Shown here one piece after another: positions 1 to 64,000 of a stretch of 64,000 nt of DNA. The stretch covers positions 1,568,001-1,632,000 of the forward strand of contig CM000152.2 of the NCBI GenBank assembly GCA_000004695.1, in the 5' to 3' direction. This DNA is from Dictyostelium discoideum (taxonomy: Eukaryota). The notes beneath the pieces are model-generated. The model ran no database searches and had not been told where the DNA came from. It worked only from the letters and a program-made list of their open reading frames with translations. The translations under genes and the position numbers were made by a program. The number at the start of each line of letters is the position of its first letter. Position 1 is the stretch's first letter.

Positions 1-261
1 CTATAGGTTGTATATTCTAATGTTCTTTTACATTTAAAGAAGAGGTGGCCATATGGGTCTTCATTACATAGCATACAATTTATAAGGTGAATATAGTTTA
101 ATGGTAGACATCTTGCATGAAATCTAAACGTCGTATCTTTTGTTTTAATAAACCTTTTTTTTTTTTTTTTTTTTTTTTGATAAATAAACTATTGTAGTAT
201 ACAATTAGTATATTATTTTTATTTATTTATTTTAGGTTTTTTAGTTTTTGTGAATTTAAAA

Positions 262-778
262 TGGAATGTTATTTTAGATTGGGTAATTAATAATTAATTG
301 GTGGTGGAATTGTTGGAATTGGTTCATTTGTGATTATGCTCCATTCTTTTTTAAATTTTTTGATGGTTTAGGACCATTGGGTTTCTTTTTGAGTTTTTGT
401 GAGTTGTTTTTAAGTGAGTTTTGGTTATAGATAATGTTCTTGAATATTCCAATTAGCTTGTGCCATTTTGATTTTAATATATCATAATCTAGTATTGTGT
501 TTTTTATTTGATTGTTCCGATTATCAATTGATTGAGTTATATTGATGTCAAATAATGATTTGCATATCCATATCCATATTTGGTGAATAACTAATGAGAT
601 TATGTTCCAATATGCATGTGTTTTGACTAGATCAAGATTTGTGTTTATATAATTCCAGTAGAATCTGTATTTTTTATTTTGTGCGTTTTCAGCAAAATTA
701 ATAAACCAATGAACCAATTCCAACAATTACACCACCAATTAATTATTAATTACCTAACCTAAAATAACATACCATTTT
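262..778. repeat. About 70-bp inverted repeat pair (262-331 and 700-778) flanking the ORF2 remnant
   Basis: ggtaattaataattaattggtggtggaattgttggaattggttcat (283-328) is the reverse complement of atgaaccaattccaacaattacaccaccaattaattattaattacc (700-745) with one mismatch. The match extends with a few mismatches to ttaaaatggaatgttattttagattgg (262-288) versus the revcomp of 749-778. The right arm overlaps the N-terminal 26 nt of the ORF remnant. Confidence 0.8.
334..726 (-). pseudogene. ORF2 C-terminal remnant of the decayed TRE copy (130-aa open frame, starts on TTG not ATG)
   Basis: Protein similarity to the C-terminus of the 1234-aa ORF2 at 998-4702. The first codon is TTG (724-726), so the M in the track is an artefact. 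There are no upstream RT or endonuclease parts in frame. Confidence 0.5.
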
Positions 779-786
779 AATAAACC

Positions 787-800
787 GAAATTCGTAAAAT
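787..800. repeat. Target-site duplication, left copy (gaaattcgtaaaat)
   Basis: Identical 14-mer at 6047-6060. A second shared 13-mer, taaaagcggtgta, occurs at 816-828 and 6034-6046. Confidence 0.65.
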
Positions 801-828
801 TTTTTTTTTTTACCTAAAAGCGGTGTAT

Positions 829-831
829 TTT

Positions 832-895
<64 letters not shown>
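829..895 (-). repeat. Poly(A) tail of the retrotransposon (T-run on the plus strand)
   Basis: Homopolymer T of about 67 nt lying immediately 3' of the ORF2 3' UTR on the element strand. Confidence 0.8.
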
Positions 896-899
<4 letters not shown>

Positions 900-997
900 T
901 GGATTAACAAGATTGATATATGTCCATCTGTGTTAATACGAGTTTTTATTTAATATTTATTTATAGGCTTATCATTTAAGCTGAAGGGTTATTTTAA

Positions 998-3900
998 TCA
1001 TATGAATTGATCAAAAGATATAATATTTGGGAGAGATGATTCTGGAATACAATAGTAATTAGCTGTTGTTTTTCTTAGCTTGATCGTTGAGGTGAGAAGG
1101 ATCTTAGGGTCTTTGAAATTATTATGGTCTTTTGCTGATAAGTTTTTCAGGTCTTTTGCTTTTTTGATGTATTCTAGAGTGGCCAATTTGTGCCATTTCT
1201 TTAGAAGGGAGCTGTATGATAGTGATTCATTTGTTAAAGGATCTTCACTGTATATTTGATTGCAAATCCAAATCCAAATGTTGTGGAGGATAAGGGCCAT
1301 TAGGTTTCTATATGCGAATGATCTGGTTAGATCATAGTCTATTGCTTTATAGTTCCATTCAAAGTATTCTTTGTGGAATCTGTGGTTGGCGTAGTCTGCA
1401 TTCACTTCTTGATCTTTTTTGGCTGTCGGTGATAATTTTGGAGTTATTCTATTAATGAAATTGTTATTTTGCCTAATTCTTGTATGGTGCCAGTTTTTAC
1501 CTTTGCCTGTGGTAATATAGATGAAATTTTTGAGTTTATTTATTTTTATGAATTGTTTTGTTTTCTTGCATGAGAAGAACAGGTGACCGTATGGGTCTTT
1601 GCTCATATCTTCTTTGCAGAGTGGACATTGTTTGTTGTGAAGGTAGTTTATTGGAAGGCATCTGGCATGGAATCTAAACATTGTGTCTTTTGTTTTAGGG
1701 TCTTTTATCTTCAGTATGTTGTTGAAGAGTTGATTATAGCTGTAGCCTCTTAAGTTTAGAGATGATTGGAATTCCGTTTTAGGGATGGTTAAATTTTGGT
1801 CTTGAATTGTGGTATACCATTCTGCCAGTGAAAGTGGTTGTCCATTTTCGTTTTTTATGGATGTGAGATTATTGTTGAAGATTGCTTTTTTTATTCTTAT
1901 TTTGTTCCATTCGTCTAAGTTTTCTTTTAGGTATCTGGATGTGAATTTGTTTTTTTGGATCTGATATTCCCAGCTTTTGTGATGCGATGAGTTTGTTTGT
2001 TTGGTTTCTAGTGCTAGGATGAACTGGTTTATGATCCAAAGTTTCTGCGCCAGTTGTCTCAATTCTATATTCCAAATGTTCCAACCCCCTACTTTTAGTG
2101 GGTATCTTGCTCTTTTGGTTCTCATTAAATTAATAACTTGAAATCCACTAGCATTTTTGTTGTTTGGTGCCGATAAAAACCATTCGACTAATTTATTGAT
2201 TTGGTTTAATTCCTCTTCCTTAAAGTTCTCTACATATGAATAGTAGGTTAATTTAGAGAGTGCGAATGCTTTGAGGATGTTGGTTTTGGTTTTGATTGTT
2301 GAGTCAGTGGTTTTCCATAGTACTAAGGATGATCTTATTGTGTTTAATATTTCTGGCATTTTTCTTGTTATCCCTTTGCCTGTGAAGAAGTATCCCAAGT
2401 ATCTTTCTGGATTTGTAGATATTGGAATTCTTTGGTTGGTATTGTCTGGGTTGCCTATAAGAATTGATGAAGATTTGTCGATGTTTAGTTTTGAGGAAGT
2501 GGCTTTGCAAAATGAATTGAAGTGTTGTAGTACTAATTCAAGTTGTTGAAAGTCTGGGACCATTGAAGCCGAGTCGTCTGCAAAGCTTTGGAATTTCTCT
2601 CTGTGGTTGCTGTTGTTTAGAGGAAGGCCAGTAATTCGGTCATCTTGTAAAATTTTTCTAGCTAAAGCCTCTATTACAAGGACGAACAGGGTGGGTGATA
2701 GTGGATCTCCTTGTTTAACTCCTCTTTTGATCTCAAAGGGTATAGTAGTTCTACCATTAATTTCAATTCTTGCTTCAGATTTGGTGAGTAGATTCATTAT
2801 CAGGTTGATTATATTGGTTGGAATGTTGATGTGTTGTAGTGATCTGAGTATTGAACCGTGTGAGATCGAGTCAAAAGCTTTTTCGAAATCATATAGTGTA
2901 ATTATTCCGTTAATTCTTTTATCATTACAATAGTTGATTAATTCGTTCATTGATATGATATTATCTAGAATGAATCTGCCTGGTACGAAACCTTTTTGAT
3001 TGTGGTTGATCACTTTCGTTAGTATTGGGATTATTCTATTGTTTATTAGTTTTGAGTGGATTTTATATATACAGTTAGCCAGTGTAATTGGTCTTCTGTT
3101 TTTGATTAGTTCGGGGTCTCCCTTTTTAGGTATCGTGATAATGAGGCCTTCTTTGTAATTTTTGCTAATTAGATGAGGATTTCTTAGAGTGTCGTTGAAT
3201 GCTGAGGCCAGTATTGGAGCTAGTTTTTCTTTGTGTGTTATGTAGAATAAGTTTGGAATTCCATCTGGGCCTGGAGATTTGTGTGGGTTCAATTGTTTTA
3301 TTACTTCTAGGATCTCTTGTGATGTGAATTCATTTTCAAGGTTGTCCCATGTTGAGTCCCTGGTCACTGTCCAATTTTCCAACATTTCATAATGAGATGG
3401 TGGGTCATCTTCTTTGTAGTCATAAAGATTTGAGTAATATTTTACGTATTCTTCTTCGATCAATTCCTGTTTGTTGATTGTTCTACCTTGTGCATCTTTT
3501 ACTGCGTTGATGGTGAAATCATTGTGTCTTTTCTTGATTCTCGCGGAGATGTACTTGAGTGAGGTTTCTTCGCAATAGTTGTTCAATTCTTGTTTAAGTT
3601 GTTCTTCTCTTTTTTTAGATTCATTTATTGCTGAAAGGGTTGCGAAGGCTTGGTCTTTAAATTCTGTCTCTAGTAGGGAGATTAGATTTTTGATGTTTGC
3701 CTTATTGTTGTAGTCATTTTGTTTTTGAAATTCTGTGTATAGTTGTTTTATTTTGTTTAGTAAGCTGTTGAGTTGAGAGAAGGAAATAGAGTTATGGTTG
3801 GATGACAGCTCCCTTGAATAATCGTTAAGTAGGAAGTCTATTTTCTTAAGCATTATGCTTGAGAGGATTGAGGATTTTTTTAATCTCCATCTGCGCTTGT

Positions 3901-4702
3901 TCATCTGTATGTTGGGTAGAGTGAAGGTGGTTGATAGGAAGTTGTGATCTGATAGAGGTATGTCATTAATTTTTGGGGGGATTAGGTTCCTTAAGTATAA
4001 TTGGCTGTAGTTGATTATGCTATTGTTAAGGTATATTCTGTCTAGTCTCCTTTCCAAGATTCTTGTGAGGTTATTGTTTGTGTTGTGTATCGTTCTTGAG
4101 AAGGTGGGTCTTTTATTTAGTTGGTCCATATCCATTAGGTTATTTGAAATTCTGATGGCTTCGATTACTGTGGCCATCTCATCTGGGGATTGTGTTGTCA
4201 AGTTGCCTTGGTCATCATTTGATGTGTGATTGTCATTGAAGTCTAAACAGTTGAAGTCGCCTGCTATGATGTCGATGTTTTTATTAGGGTTAGACGTTAG
4301 GTTGTGGTATTGGTTGTTGAAGTGTTTGTTTAGTGTTGAAGCTAGTGTTTTTCTTTTATCAGGTTGGGCCGGGGCGTATATGGCCAAGATTCTCGTTGTG
4401 GTATCTTTTATTAGAATGTCTGATATTATTAGTCTACCTTCTATTATGAATATTGGTGAGAGTTTTATGTTTTGGTTGTTGTGGTTTAGTATTCCTATTC
4501 CGTTGCCTCTGTTGGTTGCGCTAATGATGGAGCCAGGAAATAGCTGGTGTGCTTGTGTTGCGTCGGCGTTGAGTTCATTGACTATGGTTAGTGCCAATGA
4601 GTTTGGGGGGGATTGGGATTTGATAAAGTCTGTTTTGTTTTTGAAGGAGGTGTCAGTGCCCCAACCTCTGACATTCCATTGGTTGATTTTGATTACTACC
4701 AT
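998..4702 (-). CDS. Retrotransposon ORF2: apurinic/apyrimidinic-type endonuclease plus reverse transcriptase plus Cys-His knuckle (1234 aa)
   Basis: Uninterrupted ORF with a genuine ATG at 4702-4700. The N-terminus has EEP/APE-like motifs (IIAGDFN, SDH), a central RT domain (PGPDGIP..., FADDSA) and C-terminal CPLCKEDMSKDPYGHLFFSC. Confidence 0.85.
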   Translation of the reverse strand: MVVIKINQWNVRGWGTDTSFKNKTDFIKSQSPPNSLALTIVNELNADATQAHQLFPGSIISATNRGNGIGILNHNNQNIKLSPIFIIEGRLIISDILIKDTTTRILAIYAPAQPDKRKTLASTLNKHFNNQYHNLTSNPNKNIDIIAGDFNCLDFNDNHTSNDDQGNLTTQSPDEMATVIEAIRISNNLMDMDQLNKRPTFSRTIHNTNNNLTRILERRLDRIYLNNSIINYSQLYLRNLIPPKINDIPLSDHNFLSTTFTLPNIQMNKRRWRLKKSSILSSIMLKKIDFLLNDYSRELSSNHNSISFSQLNSLLNKIKQLYTEFQKQNDYNNKANIKNLISLLETEFKDQAFATLSAINESKKREEQLKQELNNYCEETSLKYISARIKKRHNDFTINAVKDAQGRTINKQELIEEEYVKYYSNLYDYKEDDPPSHYEMLENWTVTRDSTWDNLENEFTSQEILEVIKQLNPHKSPGPDGIPNLFYITHKEKLAPILASAFNDTLRNPHLISKNYKEGLIITIPKKGDPELIKNRRPITLANCIYKIHSKLINNRIIPILTKVINHNQKGFVPGRFILDNIISMNELINYCNDKRINGIITLYDFEKAFDSISHGSILRSLQHINIPTNIINLIMNLLTKSEARIEINGRTTIPFEIKRGVKQGDPLSPTLFVLVIEALARKILQDDRITGLPLNNSNHREKFQSFADDSASMVPDFQQLELVLQHFNSFCKATSSKLNIDKSSSILIGNPDNTNQRIPISTNPERYLGYFFTGKGITRKMPEILNTIRSSLVLWKTTDSTIKTKTNILKAFALSKLTYYSYVENFKEEELNQINKLVEWFLSAPNNKNASGFQVINLMRTKRARYPLKVGGWNIWNIELRQLAQKLWIINQFILALETKQTNSSHHKSWEYQIQKNKFTSRYLKENLDEWNKIRIKKAIFNNNLTSIKNENGQPLSLAEWYTTIQDQNLTIPKTEFQSSLNLRGYSYNQLFNNILKIKDPKTKDTMFRFHARCLPINYLHNKQCPLCKEDMSKDPYGHLFFSCKKTKQFIKINKLKNFIYITTGKGKNWHHTRIRQNNNFINRITPKLSPTAKKDQEVNADYANHRFHKEYFEWNYKAIDYDLTRSFAYRNLMALILHNIWIWICNQIYSEDPLTNESLSYSSLLKKWHKLATLEYIKKAKDLKNLSAKDHNNFKDPKILLTSTIKLRKTTANYYCIPESSLPNIISFDQFI

Positions 4703-5955
4703 TATGAGATGATATCGATCTCCTCTTGGGAGTCGTATAGCTGCGGTTTGGATGGTGAAGGGTAGATACTCTCTATGAAGCTCTCAATGATTCCTTTCCT
4801 TTCTTTTTTGACAGGTGTCTTAGGGGTGGATGGGATGTAAGGGTTGCTTCTGTTTATTGTTGGTGAGAGTTGGGTGACCTCGTTGTTTGAGTGGATTTCC
4901 TCGTTCTTGCGTTTATGTGATGGAGGGATGTTTGGTGTCTTCTCTCTGTTTTCCGAGGATGAATGGATGTTAGTGCTCGTTTTGTTGGCATTGTCTTTTT
5001 GGATGGCGTTGGATGTTGTGGTAGTGGTTGTGGTGGGTTTGACAGATTGAGATTCTGCTTGGTTTTTGGGGGGAAGAGGTTGAGAGGACTTTTTTGATTG
5101 GGCTTTTTTCTCTTGGGTTGATTGTTTATCAGACTTATTGTTTGCTGGGTTGTTTGTTTGTTGTTGTGGTTTTGGTTGAGAGGATTTGATTGCTATCCTG
5201 TTTTGGATGTTGGGAGGATCATCTGTCATCTCATCTTCTAATGGTTCTTCCGTGTTGTTTGACTCTACTTTCTTATTTTTCTTTTGAGAGGAGTAGGTTT
5301 TGGTGGCCGTTCTGATGGTAAAGTTGGCGATTTCTGTATTGTGTTGGCCAGATTTCATTTGATCGCCTATTTTGCATTCTATTAGACCGAATACTAGGAG
5401 GTGGTCGGTGGAGTATGTAGTATGGTATATTGCATAGGGTATTTCTTCTGCAAAGGCAGTTTTGATGAGGGCGTCCACTATTCCTGCCTTTTCTCTTGGA
5501 ATTCTTACTCTTCCTGTGAGGACGTGGTAGTCTCTACTGGAGGTGATGAAGGTTCCCAATTTGCTTCTATCTCTAATGATATTTAGGAGAGATTGTTCGT
5601 TTTTAATCATCAGGTGTATCATTTTTCTAGTTCCTTTGCCTATGTATATCTTGTCGATTGGGATATCGTAGTTTGAGAGTGTTTTTCTCATTTCTTCTAA
5701 CCCCATGAGATCCATTTTGGGGAATTCGAGTGTAATTGGGTAGAATCCGTTGTTTTTCTCGTAGGTTGAGAGCGCAGTCATGTTCAATATGGTCTCGCAG
5801 TATTTGGAGATGTCTTTGAGGCCTATTGATAATTTGGGGTAGGTCTCCTTTATCTCTGCTGTTTTTGTGGAGAATTCCTTAATGAAGTTCTCTGATGCCT
5901 CGTCCATATGGGTGGAGGGGTTGGCCATTTTAGCCGCGTCTGCGTAGGAATTCAT
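4702..5955 (-). CDS. Retrotransposon ORF1 (417 aa, basic/Thr-rich nucleic-acid-binding-type protein)
   Basis: ATG at 5955-5953. The stop TAA at 4704-4702 overlaps the ORF2 ATG by one base (TAATG), a termination-reinitiation-type junction. Confidence 0.8.
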   Translation of the reverse strand: MNSYADAAKMANPSTHMDEASENFIKEFSTKTAEIKETYPKLSIGLKDISKYCETILNMTALSTYEKNNGFYPITLEFPKMDLMGLEEMRKTLSNYDIPIDKIYIGKGTRKMIHLMIKNEQSLLNIIRDRSKLGTFITSSRDYHVLTGRVRIPREKAGIVDALIKTAFAEEIPYAIYHTTYSTDHLLVFGLIECKIGDQMKSGQHNTEIANFTIRTATKTYSSQKKNKKVESNNTEEPLEDEMTDDPPNIQNRIAIKSSQPKPQQQTNNPANNKSDKQSTQEKKAQSKKSSQPLPPKNQAESQSVKPTTTTTTTSNAIQKDNANKTSTNIHSSSENREKTPNIPPSHKRKNEEIHSNNEVTQLSPTINRSNPYIPSTPKTPVKKERKGIIESFIESIYPSPSKPQLYDSQEEIDIIS

Positions 5956-6046
5956 CTCGATGGGATTCCTTTGAATCGGCGATTTGGTAAGTTAGATCTG
6001 TAGATCGTGGTGGATTGGTGATTTTTTTCGTAAAAGCGGTGTAACG

Positions 6047-6060
6047 AAATTCGTAAAATA
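6047..6060. repeat. Target-site duplication, right copy (gaaattcgtaaaat)
   Basis: Identical to 787-800. Confidence 0.65.
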
Positions 6061-6081
6061 AATATTTTTTATAAAAATGGA

Positions 6082-6153
6082 AGTTCCGAACCAGGATTGA
6101 ACTGGCGACCTAACGATTTGCAGTCGCTTGCTCTTCCACTGAGCTATCGAAAC
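6082..6153 (-). tRNA. tRNA-Cys (anticodon GCA)
   Basis: Minus strand reads GTTTCGATAGCTCAGTGGAAGAGCAAGCGACTGCAAATCGTTAGGTCGCCAGTTCAATCCTGGTTCGGAACT. It has a 7-bp acceptor stem (GTTTCGA/TCGGAAC), D-arm GCTC..GAGC, anticodon stem AGCGA/TCGTT with loop CTGCAAA (GCA), variable loop AGGTC, T-arm GCCAG-TTCAATC-CTGGT and discriminator T. It is followed on the same strand by TTTTT (6077-6073), a Pol III terminator. Confidence 0.8.
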
Positions 6154-8061
6154 TTGTTGAAATTTTTTAATGAGACCTTTTTTTTTGAATTGGAGAATTT
6201 TTTAATGAAACCTCTCACTTTCATTACAATTATCTTAAATTTGTGTCAAATAATATTTCAAATAATAATTTTATTAATTTCAGCAAAGATTAAAAATAAT
6301 ATTTTTTATTTAATTTTATAATTAATAATTATGTCACTCATTTAATTTATTATAAATATAAAAAAATAATTTAATTTTAATTCAGGTTGTTATCTCATTG
6401 TTAAGCGATAAAAGATATTAAATAAAAATATATATAAATAAATATAAATATAAATATAAATATAAATTAATATATAAAGTGTTTTAAAGATTATTTAATA
6501 TAAAATAAAGATTAAATTTTAAATAAAAATTATAATATTTGTAACATAATTACAAAAGACCACTTTCGTTACAATTTGTGGTTTAACAGCCCAACCTAGC
6601 CAATTTTAAGTCAATGGTTCGTTTCTGGGTTAAAATCTAATATGCCAAAATAAAATTAATTTGTCAAATTAAGATATTTAAAGTTTAAAATTTAGCCAAA
6701 AATTTTCATTTTTTTACAAAAAAGAATTATAATATAATAAAAAAAAGCCAAAAAGATATGTTTTACAATAAATAAATTAAGTATTTACAATTTTATTTAA
6801 ATTTTAAAATTATTAGGAATTTTAATTTGTATTTGTTTTTAAATTAATTAATATTTATATATTAATATTAATTATATATATACATATTGATTACTATTCC
6901 AATTAAATATATGCAGGGCCAACATAAAATCCTTTTTTAATTACAGTTTTTCTTGGATCCCATCTCGTTATCATTGATTTTTCATATACTAATGAACTAT
7001 TAAAATTGTTTAAATTTTGGAATGTTTTATTATTTTTAATTGTAACGATTGCAGAAAAAGAATCTAAAATATTTAAAATTAATCTTTGTTAGATTTTTAT
7101 TTAAATTTTAAAAGTTTATTTTTTTTTTTTTTTTTTTTTTTTTTCTAATCAACTTACCGATAATTGTCATTTAATAATTTATTTATAAAAATATTTAGAT
7201 AAATATTTGAAAAATGATATTTAAAAAAATGAAAAAAGATAAAATAATAATAAACAAAAAAAAAGATCAAAATTATTTATAGTTTTATTTTTTTTAATTA
7301 TTTATTTATACTTTATTTTTTTTTTATTTATTTATATTTATTTTTATTTTTATTTTTATTTTTATTTTTATTTTTATTTTTTTTGTTTTGATATAAAAGT
7401 GGTGAAAAGATTAGATATAAAATGTTCAACTAATTAGATATAAATTAAAAAAATACTTTAAACATTAGACATGCTATTCTTCATAGTTGTGCCAAAAAAA
7501 AATAAAAAATAATATTGTTTTAATAATAAAATTAAAAAAATAATAATTAAAAAAAAAAAAAAAAAAAGATTGTGGGACAAGATTAACAGATGAGAAGTGT
7601 GAGTGGTTATTTTGTTTTTGTTTTTATTTGTATATTTTTATTTCTAATTAATCTTTTTTTTTTTATTTTTTTTTTAAAATTATTTATTAATTTATTTATT
7701 TATTTATTTATTTTTTTTTTGAAAAAAAAAAGAATAATTAATTTTAAAAAAAAAAATTATTTATTCATTTTATAATTCCTTATATTAATAAACAAATATA
7801 AAAGATAAAAATTGTTTATACCCCTAAGTGTAATATAAACCCCTAATAAGAAAAACTCTTAATCAAATTAATGTGTGGTAAATTTTTAAACCTCAAGATA
7901 TGTACAATTTGTCAATTATCTGTCAAATTGTAATTATCTCAACAACTATCTTAATGTCAACTATTAATAAATTTTCCAATAATGATGATTATTAATTGTT
8001 CACATGGTGATAATAATAATTATAATTATTATAATAATCAAAAAAATAAAAAATAAAAAAA

Positions 8062-28644: not shown

Positions 28645-29199
28645 GTAAGAATGAACTCTTTTTATTAATTTATTTATTTATTTATCTATTTATTTTTATT
28701 TTTATTTTTATTTTTTTTTTTTGGTTGTTGCTTTTTTAACAAAGTTTAAAAAAAAACAAAACACAAAGAAATCAAAATTTATCTCATTATAATTTCCTCA
28801 CAAAATTTACAACTCTGTTGAAGCTATTGTCTATTTAATTTTTTTTTTTTTTTTTTTTTTTCTTCACAAATATAACAATAACGGATAATCCAAAAATAGA
28901 TAATTGTTTTTTTTTTTTTAATTCATTTTTTTTTTTTTTTAATTCATTTTTTTTTTTTTTTTTTTTATTATTACCCAATAATTTAAATAATAGTAATAGA
29001 TTAAAATGATTTTAGTTCCAACATTCATTATTTTCAGGTAATTGGGCTAAAAAAAAAAAAAAAAAAAAAATTGTAACTCGTAAAACCAAAAGACACTAAA
29101 TTATATATTTTTTTTTTTTTTTCTTTTTTGAGTACATTAATATAAAAAAAAAAAAAAAAATTAAAAAGGTCAAATTGTGACCGATTTGACTTTTAAAAA

Positions 29200-29338
<139 letters not shown>

Positions 29339-30021
29339 TGTAATTAAATCTTTTTTTTATTTATTTATTTTTTATTTTCAATTTGTTTTTTTTTTTTTTT
29401 TTAATTTATTCTGTTTTTATAATCATTTCCAATACAGCAAAAAATAGTAGTGAGTGGAGTTGTTGGTATGACTTAATTTACAAAAAAATCCAGTAAATTT
29501 ACTATTTTTATCGGTTATTATAAAAAAAAAAAATAACAATGATCAATTAATTATTTTTTTCATTTAATTTTTTTATTTTTTAATTTTTATATTTAAACAT
29601 ATTTTTTATTTTTTTTATTTTATTTTTTTTTTGTAGATGAAAAGTGCAAAAAAAAAAATAAAATAATAATAATTTACGAATTAGTGTATAGATTTATTAA
29701 AGTGTTATAACACCATACGTTTTTTTTTTTTTTTATTTGTGCTATTATTTTTATTATCTTCTATCATAGGGTGTTGGTGGTGCATTTTGCCAATTTTTTT
29801 TTTAATTATATTTTTTATTTTTTAAATTATATTTTTATATTTTTTTTTTTAATTTTTTTTTTTTTTTTTTTCTGTGTTTGTTGGTGATTGACAATATACT
29901 GAAGTGCTGCTATGTATGAATATAGCCGACAATATTTTACAAACAAAATAATAATAATAATAATAAAATAACACACAAAAAATATAACAGTACATTTTGT
30001 TAGATCAATAATATATATTTA

Positions 30022-40910: not shown

Positions 40911-45036
<4,126 letters not shown>

Positions 45037-58036: not shown

Positions 58037-64000
<5,964 letters not shown>

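Follow-up and report, generated by a model that had tools for sequence, protein, structure and literature searches.

LINE-like (long interspersed nuclear element-like) retrotransposons of the TRE3 type insert approximately 40–150 bp downstream of transfer RNA (tRNA) genes and in the orientation of the tRNA (PMC5911963), and at least one TRE is found at 61% of the tRNA genes of Dictyostelium discoideum (PMC5006619). In this study, the left end of a 64,000-nt stretch of contig CM000152.2 (hereafter the window; G+C content 24%) was analysed, and near-identical relatives of the proteins encoded there are those of D. discoideum. Four TRE insertions were identified at a tRNA-Cys(GCA) gene. These are: (i) remnant A, (ii) remnant B, (iii) a mini-insert and (iv) an intact element. 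The subject of this work is remnant B, a 5'-truncated TRE3-type copy that carries, at its truncation point and within its own target-site duplication, an inverted 76-nt copy of its family's sequence.

The closest described cases come from L1 elements of human and other primates. Twin priming and dual priming yield LINE insertions with inverted 5' segments that lie inside target-site duplications and show microhomology at the junction with the target (PMC2837659), and duplications at the inversion breakpoints have been reported (PMC12350158, Extended Data Fig. 5). In classical twin priming a single RNA is used and its upstream part supplies the inverted piece (PMC2837659; PMC12350158, Extended Data Fig. 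5), while dual priming, as proposed, involves two RNAs primed at the two nicks (PMC2837659). Hairpin self-annealing at the ends of L1 reverse transcription has also been reported to give rise to inverted duplications (bioRxiv 10.1101/2024.12.14.628481). The first-pass annotation of the window had recognized an inverted arrangement and treated it as exotic. This judgement needs softening, since 5'-inverted segments are a well-known LINE by-product (twin priming; PMC2837659, PMC12350158), and the case described here is best filed as an unusual instance of this known class of integration by-products. A literature search combining twin priming and Dictyostelium retrieved no published description for TRE3.

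Remnant B and its inverted repeat

The features of remnant B are as follows (family copies are named after the loci in which they lie, L002–L006).

155–774, minus strand: remnant B, TRE3-type and 5'-truncated, defined by family alignment, poly(A) and target-site duplication
155–178, minus strand: poly(A) tail, A24 (T24 on the plus strand), aligned with the poly(A) of five family copies
179–286, minus strand: 3' untranslated region (3'UTR), 108 nt, colinear with L002–L005 from stop codon to poly(A)
256–331, minus strand: left arm (native), made of the last 14 codons of open reading frame (ORF) 2 (NEPIPTIPPPINY..), the stop codon and the first 31 nt of the 3'UTR, in register with all family copies
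287–704, minus strand: decayed C-terminal segment of ORF2, 93.5% identity to L002 4218–4770
705–780, plus strand: right arm, corresponding to the ORF2 end and 3'UTR start of the family in inverted orientation, 97.4% identity to L002 4598–4673 reversed
143–154, no strand: left copy of the 12-bp target-site duplication (TTTTAATAAACC on the plus strand), an exact repeat of 775–786, next to the poly(A)
775–786, no strand: right copy of the same 12-bp duplication, overlapping the outer 6 nt of the right arm

An inverted-repeat scan delimited the two arms to 256–331 and 705–780 (76 nt, 93% complementary, 373 nt apart), and direct counting of the pairing gave mismatches at 5 of the 76 positions (71/76 complementary). 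The 33-nt core of the repeat has only two sites in the whole window, with 0.00 expected from shuffled sequences, and the RNA of 240–800 folds as a long stem of -137 kcal/mol (z = -12 against shuffles). The inverted repeat is therefore real and far beyond chance. The first-pass annotation had paired 283–331 with 700–748 and counted 1 mismatch in 46 bp; the repeat itself stands, whereas the partner of 283–331 is 705–753, 5 nt further on, and this pairing contains 2 mismatches in 49. Elsewhere in the window the scan returned long-range, low-identity or low-complexity pairs, all unrelated to the repeat of 256–780. Two distant inverted matches (29198–29338 with 63448–63588, and 29217–29339 with 44690–44812; 120–140 nt, 95–98% identity) may represent repetitive coding sequence or another repeat family.

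The region 1–800 had been described as a single decayed copy. It holds instead two unrelated 5'-truncated remnants, A (1–147) and B (155–774). The minus strand of remnant B, from 701 to 161, aligns with L002 4218–4770 at 93.5% identity through the 3'UTR and into the poly(A). The ORF2 of the family ends ..KKEWSINTNEPIPTITPPINY before its stop codon, and the homologous proteins end ..NEPIPTITPPINY; in the window this end lies at 331–290 and the stop codon at 287–289. Of ORF2, remnant B retains only the C-terminal region, and its body has accumulated deletions of 5, 4 and 1 nt together with approximately 4% of substitutions. As a consequence of these deletions, the 130-amino acid ORF found mechanically at 334–726 is a frameshifted reading with an early stop at 334. 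It is also chimeric, as it runs by chance for 22 nt into the right arm. These 22 nt are the only part of the mechanical ORF that enters the right arm, which had earlier been taken for the coding 5' part of the ORF remnant. The direction of the duplication has to be reversed as well: it is the left arm that is the native ORF2 end and 3'UTR start, and an inverted copy of this segment was added at the 5' truncation point.

A search with the 130-amino acid ORF matched six D. discoideum proteins, and the loci L002–L006, from which matched proteins come, hold other copies of the remnant-B family. The ORF2 end of this family shares 37% identity (E = 2e-30) with residues 1033–1196 of the ORF2 of the intact element, and the remnant-B family is thus a different subfamily. 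This relation is seen at the protein level only, as nucleotide BLAST within the window detected no similarity between 331–705 and the intact element. Pfam gave no match for the 130-amino acid ORF or for P0002.

Three of the six copies of the family are 5'-truncated within approximately 30 nt of one another, near ..TTTTGCAGAAAACGCACAATATAAAAAA.. (L002 4202–4233), the truncation points being ~700 in the window, ~1171 in L004 and 3133 in L005. This clustering could mark a pause site of the reverse transcriptase, or it could be an ascertainment effect of a protein query that starts there. In L004 (1210–3007) the copy of the family is split by an insertion of ~1.8 kb with long, hairpin-rich terminal inverted repeats (TGTCCCATGCCAAAATTA.. 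and ..TAATTTTGGCATGGGACA, 81-nt arms at 89% identity) and a flanking direct repeat CGCACA; the insertion is probably a DNA transposon.

The right arm is attached where remnant B is truncated. Family homology of the body begins at approximately 700, i.e. at the inner edge of the right arm; beyond this point ORF2 goes on in the other copies (..KPDPTININFHFAENAQ..), and in the window the arm takes its place. The sequence across the junction of arm and body is GGTTCATTGGTTTATTAATTTTGCTG, and the inner junction can be placed no closer than 697–707.

The 12-bp target-site duplication encloses the arm, the body, the 3'UTR and the poly(A) as one unit, and two stretches of 30 nt would share a 12-nt non-homopolymer match by chance with a probability of ~4e-4. 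Positions 775–780 (TTTTAA) are at the same time the start of the duplication and the outer end of the right arm, which is a microhomology of 6 nt. The native family sequence at the outer end of the arm reads ..CCATTTTAAATTCAC; ..CCATTTTAA is followed by ATTCAC in the native sequence and by TAAACC in the window, and 6 nt are therefore common to the arm's end and the 3' terminus of the opposite, nicked strand. Given the base composition (24% GC), such a coincidence is expected once per several hundred to a thousand junctions. A comparable overlap was found in L005, a plain truncated copy of the same family, in which a 14-bp duplication, TCGTCTCGGAAAAC (3125 and 3675), overlaps the element by 6 nt (GAAAAC). 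Attachment of 5' ends by ~6 nt is thus normal for the remnant-B family.

This boundary bears on two explanations that place the arm outside the original insertion event. In the first, two copies of the same family inserted in opposite orientations and all but 76 nt of the plus-strand copy were later lost. The locus is a repeated target with four insertions, which suits this scenario, but the arm lacks the remaining 76 nt of the 3'UTR, a poly(A) and a target-site duplication of its own, its orientation is opposite to that of the tRNA gene while TRE3 inserts in the tRNA orientation (PMC5911963), and the 12-bp duplication encloses arm and body as a unit. We regard this course of events as very unlikely. 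In the second, the DNA was rearranged after integration, by a template switch at a replication fork or by palindrome-mediated deletion of a larger inverted duplication. Replicative inverted duplications with short junction microhomology are known in other genomes (PMC12350158); nevertheless, the arm ends precisely where the target-site duplication lies, 6 nt being common to both, and a later event would have had no reason to respect that boundary. The first-pass annotation had offered template switching during reverse transcription or a palindrome-mediated deletion as causes. Template switching fits the anatomy, whereas the deletion is unneeded and gives no account of an arm sitting exactly inside the target-site duplication.

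Age and distribution of the right arm

The age of the arm was approached by scoring private changes against the consensus of the five other family copies. The left arm has 3 private substitutions (265, 281 and 307) and the right arm 2 (707 and 758), with no derived change shared between them, while roughly 21 changes were counted over the ~520 nt of the body. The resulting divergences (left arm 3.9%, right arm 2.6%, body 4.0%) are indistinguishable at these numbers. As all changes in the arms are private, both arms were consensus-like when made, and the similar divergence of arm and body indicates that the right arm is as old as the insertion. A right arm as diverged as the body again speaks against a post-integration rearrangement, which would have had to occur almost immediately after insertion; overall, this origin is very unlikely.

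None of the other sequenced family copies (L002–L006) has the right arm. In addition, at least 7 further 213-amino acid ORFs of AX4, as well as models of 238 and 404 amino acids, show an uninterrupted ORF2 across the breakpoint. As far as tested, the inverted arm therefore appears to be unique to the window locus among the copies compared (at least 12 others lack it). The earlier view that the arrangement is not a normal feature of the element is borne out by its absence from the family consensus and from the five sequenced copies.

These data also address the possibility that the repeat is built into a family, either as MITE-like (miniature inverted-repeat transposable element-like) or foldback termini with a captured TRE fragment, or as a normal part of a TRE3 subfamily. 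DNA transposons with inverted ends (Tdd, DDT and thug) do exist in D. discoideum (PMC5633606), and one such insertion lies inside the family copy of L004. However, the left arm is internal, as 76 nt of 3'UTR and the poly(A) separate it from the target-site duplication, which thus lies 101 nt outside the arm, and no direct repeat immediately flanks 256 and 780. The arm sequence occurs only twice in the window, and multiple copies of the same structure, as expected of MITEs and other elements with terminal inverted repeats, were not found among the five sequenced and at least 7 protein-inferred copies, all of which are without the right arm. A built-in feature is accordingly highly improbable.

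The concern that the inverted repeat might be an assembly artefact, raised in the first-pass annotation, was examined in an independent D. discoideum assembly, GCA_054883475.1, in which the locus (L001) lies on chromosome record CM142509.1 at ~1.65 Mb. Positions 1–871 of the window are 100% identical there. The two assemblies differ in the length of the poly(A) of the intact element (38 T in L001 and 61 in the window) and at 21 positions of this element, and GCA_054883475.1 is therefore not a copy of the assembly of the window. An artefact such as a chimeric fold-back read is contradicted by this agreement in an assembly that differs elsewhere at the locus, and by the 5 of 76 positions at which the arms differ, since artefactual fold-backs are exact. 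No point in support of an artefact was found, and it is most improbable. Of the 21 differences, 20 lie in the body of the element (2550–5207), while the flanks and 1–871 agree perfectly (the difference in poly(A) length lies at 834–894). This confinement to the intact element suggests contamination of one assembly by a repeat consensus, or a strain difference or gene conversion.

Origin of the right arm

Taken together, remnant B and its arm probably result from one retrotransposition event that included a second priming step. We infer the order of the enzymatic steps and the template used as follows. Target-primed reverse transcription would have taken place ~40–50 bp downstream of tRNA-Cys, with the nicked plus strand (..TTTTAATAAACC-3') priming on the poly(A) tail. 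First-strand cDNA synthesis would have proceeded across the 3'UTR, entered ORF2 for its final ~410 nt and come to a halt near 704. A second DNA synthesis would then have added the inverted 76-nt copy of the ORF2 end and 3'UTR before the 5' end was sealed, giving the unit 155–774.

This second synthesis may have proceeded in two ways, to which we assign roughly even shares of the likelihood of a single event, slightly favouring the fold-back. In the fold-back, the reverse transcriptase would switch from the RNA to its own nascent cDNA at ~331 and copy back to 256, and the new 3' end (..CCATTTTAA) would pair over 6 nt with the 3' end of the opposite strand at its nick (..GGTTTATTAAAA-3'), in the manner seen in L005. 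Alternatively, by twin or dual priming, the end of the opposite strand (..TTAAAA-3') would prime on a TRE3 RNA, probably another molecule, at UUUUAA of its 3'UTR, and the resulting antisense cDNA of ~76 nt would be joined end to end with the first cDNA. Taken by itself, this course is possible but falls short of an even chance. It accounts for the 6 nt in which the priming site matches the end of the target-site duplication, and the microhomology is stronger at the target than at the internal junction, which is the published pattern (PMC2837659). Both arms were consensus-like when made, with which a second RNA of the same family as template also agrees. On the other hand, the same region of RNA would have been copied twice, and a single RNA gives an upstream piece rather than a nested duplicate. 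Because the inverted piece is nested, this version needs a second RNA, as in the dual priming of PMC2837659, and it involves more steps than the fold-back (a second RNA, a second initiation and joining without clear microhomology). The element's own cDNA and a second RNA of the family would leave the same sequence behind.

Comparison with L1 helps to place the event. Remnant B shares with twin-primed L1 copies (Ostertag and Kazazian 2001, via PMC2837659; population data in PMC12350158) the 5'-truncated polyadenylated copy, the inverted 5' piece, the position of both pieces within a single pair of target-site duplications with a 3' poly(A), and the microhomology between the target and the inverted piece, which here is 6 nt between nicked strand and priming site (TTAAAA in the element sense). 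It differs in that the element is a Dictyostelium TRE3 and, above all, in the source of the inverted piece. In L1 this piece is copied from RNA that lies 5' of the non-inverted part, and the inversion junction shows no more than a small deletion or duplication, while the 76 nt of the window (L002 4598–4673) form a complete duplicate nested wholly within the non-inverted piece (L002 4218–4770), 373 nt from the junction. With dual priming the locus shares the presence of one region twice, in opposite orientations, within a single insertion; however, dual priming was proposed to occur on the poly(A) and to leave a 5' poly(T) (PMC2837659), whereas in remnant B an internal site, UUUUAA of the 3'UTR, would serve for priming, and the arm has no poly(T). 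The L1 hairpin fold-backs (bioRxiv 10.1101/2024.12.14.628481) are alike in the inverted duplication at the extended 3' end and in the very short junction microhomology, but they concern adjacent genomic DNA and small hairpins, as opposed to the element's own cDNA and a loop of 373 nt.

Several points weigh against a single event with second priming. The inverted piece lies wholly inside the non-inverted part, unlike in classical twin priming, and this nesting means that the template was either one region of RNA used twice or cDNA. For the fold-back, a large loop of 373 nt is required, as well as cDNA that is free of its RNA, while TRE ORF2 has been described with endonuclease, reverse transcriptase and zinc-finger regions and with no RNase H (PMC5006619). 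The inner junction (697–707) is A/T-rich with small indels, and its microhomology of 0–4 nt supports neither version. Finally, this is a single case, in which the joint arrival of arm and body is read from sequence.

After a second synthesis of either kind, the repeat would have become a non-functional scar decaying with the rest of the copy, and no function is indicated for it. It is very doubtful that the 76-bp stem with its 373-nt loop, read through from the upstream intact TRE3, is diced into small RNAs that silence the subfamily in trans, or that nested 5' fold-backs are frequent among TRE3 copies. If the latter were true, the TRE3 reverse transcriptase would readily switch to its own cDNA, and the fold-backs would provide a natural read-out of how second-strand synthesis starts in TRE3.

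In terms of mechanism, remnant B is a well-resolved single example of a 5'-inverted copy of a tRNA-targeted LINE-like element of Dictyostelium, with a nested-duplicate geometry that is not a product of classical twin priming; recurrence across the genome would make it informative on template switching by the TRE3 reverse transcriptase. Beyond annotation the significance is small. For annotation, an apparent single decayed element resolves into four stacked TRE3 insertions whose target sites can be reconstructed cleanly, and predicted genes for "hypothetical proteins" over such remnants (ACTFIT_010361 and the 213-amino acid DDB_G genes) are transposon debris. The gene model ACTFIT_010361 (121 amino acids), which lies over remnant B (256–780; L001 6001–6489), starts inside the inverted arm and contains an invented intron. 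Other "hypothetical protein" annotations over TRE3 ORF2 remnants in AX4 are DDB_G0274719, G0268440, G0275945, G0270460, G0272268, G0282659 and G0268978.

The tRNA-Cys gene and the stack of insertions

The remaining features of the locus are listed below.

6082–6153, minus strand: tRNA-Cys(GCA), the targeted gene (ARAGORN; Rfam RF00005 at 61 bits)
828–6030, minus strand: intact TRE3-type non-LTR (non-long terminal repeat) retrotransposon with two ORFs, poly(A) and target-site duplication
828–894, minus strand: poly(A) of the intact element, ~61 nt, the T-run ending at 894
998–4702, minus strand: ORF2 of the intact element, 1234 amino acids (ORF list)
4702–5955, minus strand: ORF1 of the intact element, 417 amino acids (ORF list)
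up to ~6028–6030, minus strand: 5'UTR of the intact element, the 5' end matching other copies from AAAAAAATCACC
815–827 and 6031–6043, no strand: 13-bp target-site duplication of the intact element, TACACCGCTTTTA (direct repeat)
801–827, minus strand: mini-insert, consisting of a poly(A) (T-run 801–811) and the 3'-terminal 16 nt (TACACCGCTTTTAGGT) of a fourth TRE family, with the remainder at 6031–6044
786–800 and 6045–6059, no strand: 15-bp target-site duplication of the mini-insert, CGAAATTCGTAAAAT (direct repeat)
1–147, minus strand: remnant A, a 5'-truncated decayed TRE3 copy with a fragment of the ORF2 zinc-finger region (..KTKDTTFRFHARCLPLNY..)

The tRNA gene was the sole match in an Rfam scan of 1–7000. 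All four insertions lie downstream of it on the minus strand, i.e. in the position and orientation that characterize TRE3, and three of them, all TRE3-type, fall within 1–830, behind the intact element as seen from tRNA-Cys. The first-pass annotation had correctly recognized stacking of tRNA-targeted elements at one locus, but it counted two insertions where there are four. A poly(A) and a target-site duplication are present in remnant B, the mini-insert and the intact element, and the duplications of the stacked insertions are either separate or nested. The reconstructed target reads ..GTTTTAATAAACCGAAATTCG.., and the insertion points, at +23 to +48 nt counted from the end of the tRNA, match or fall slightly short of the minimum of the published range of 40–150 bp. 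In tRNA-downstream site, orientation, poly(A), target-site duplication, 5' truncation and stacking, the locus resembles described TRE3 clusters (PMC5006619, PMC5911963), and the stacking at tRNA-Cys is standard TRE biology with nothing unusual about it. A second TRE stack in a single orientation was observed in L006 (2700–5600). It opens with a 3' end of the intact family, continues with a truncated fourth-family copy and then one of the remnant-B family, and is followed by a tRNA gene. A further copy of the intact family is located ~160 nt downstream of this tRNA gene.

The intact element has the two ORFs of TRE3, with endonuclease, reverse transcriptase and zinc-finger regions in ORF2. In Pfam, its ORF2 matched RVT_1 (E = 5e-33) and, over the full profile although below the curated cut-off, Exo_endo_phos. 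The stop codon of ORF1 and the start codon of ORF2 overlap by one base (TAATG, 4700–4704). Since both ORFs are open, this copy may be active, judging by its sequence. The ORF1 cluster of the family has 37 members, an abundance that suggests, as no more than an inference, TRE3-A. Source databases label the relatives of these proteins as hypothetical, and the protein collection searched contained no exact matches to the ORF1 and ORF2 of the window.

After remnant B, the mini-insert and then the intact element would have landed between it and the tRNA gene. The mini-insert has a poly(A) of about A12, and its 3' end and poly(A) also terminate a longer copy of the fourth family at L006 3060–3852. 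The arrangement indicates that the intact element later inserted into the mini-insert and split it, and nested target-site duplications surround the intact element (786–827 and 6031–6059). These nested direct repeats raised the possibility that the intact element is terminally redundant, with its 5' end repeated behind its poly(A). This was rejected, because other copies of the intact family start at AAAAAAATCACC without the sequence in question and because this sequence forms the 3' terminus of another TRE family. With 16 nt and a poly(A), the mini-insert implies that TRE3-type insertions can be truncated to less than 20 nt.

Remnant A extends past the left edge of the window, and in L001 it continues for ~560 nt more, up to a short A-run. 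Its positions 87–147 share 84% DNA identity with 1637–1697 in ORF2 of the intact element.

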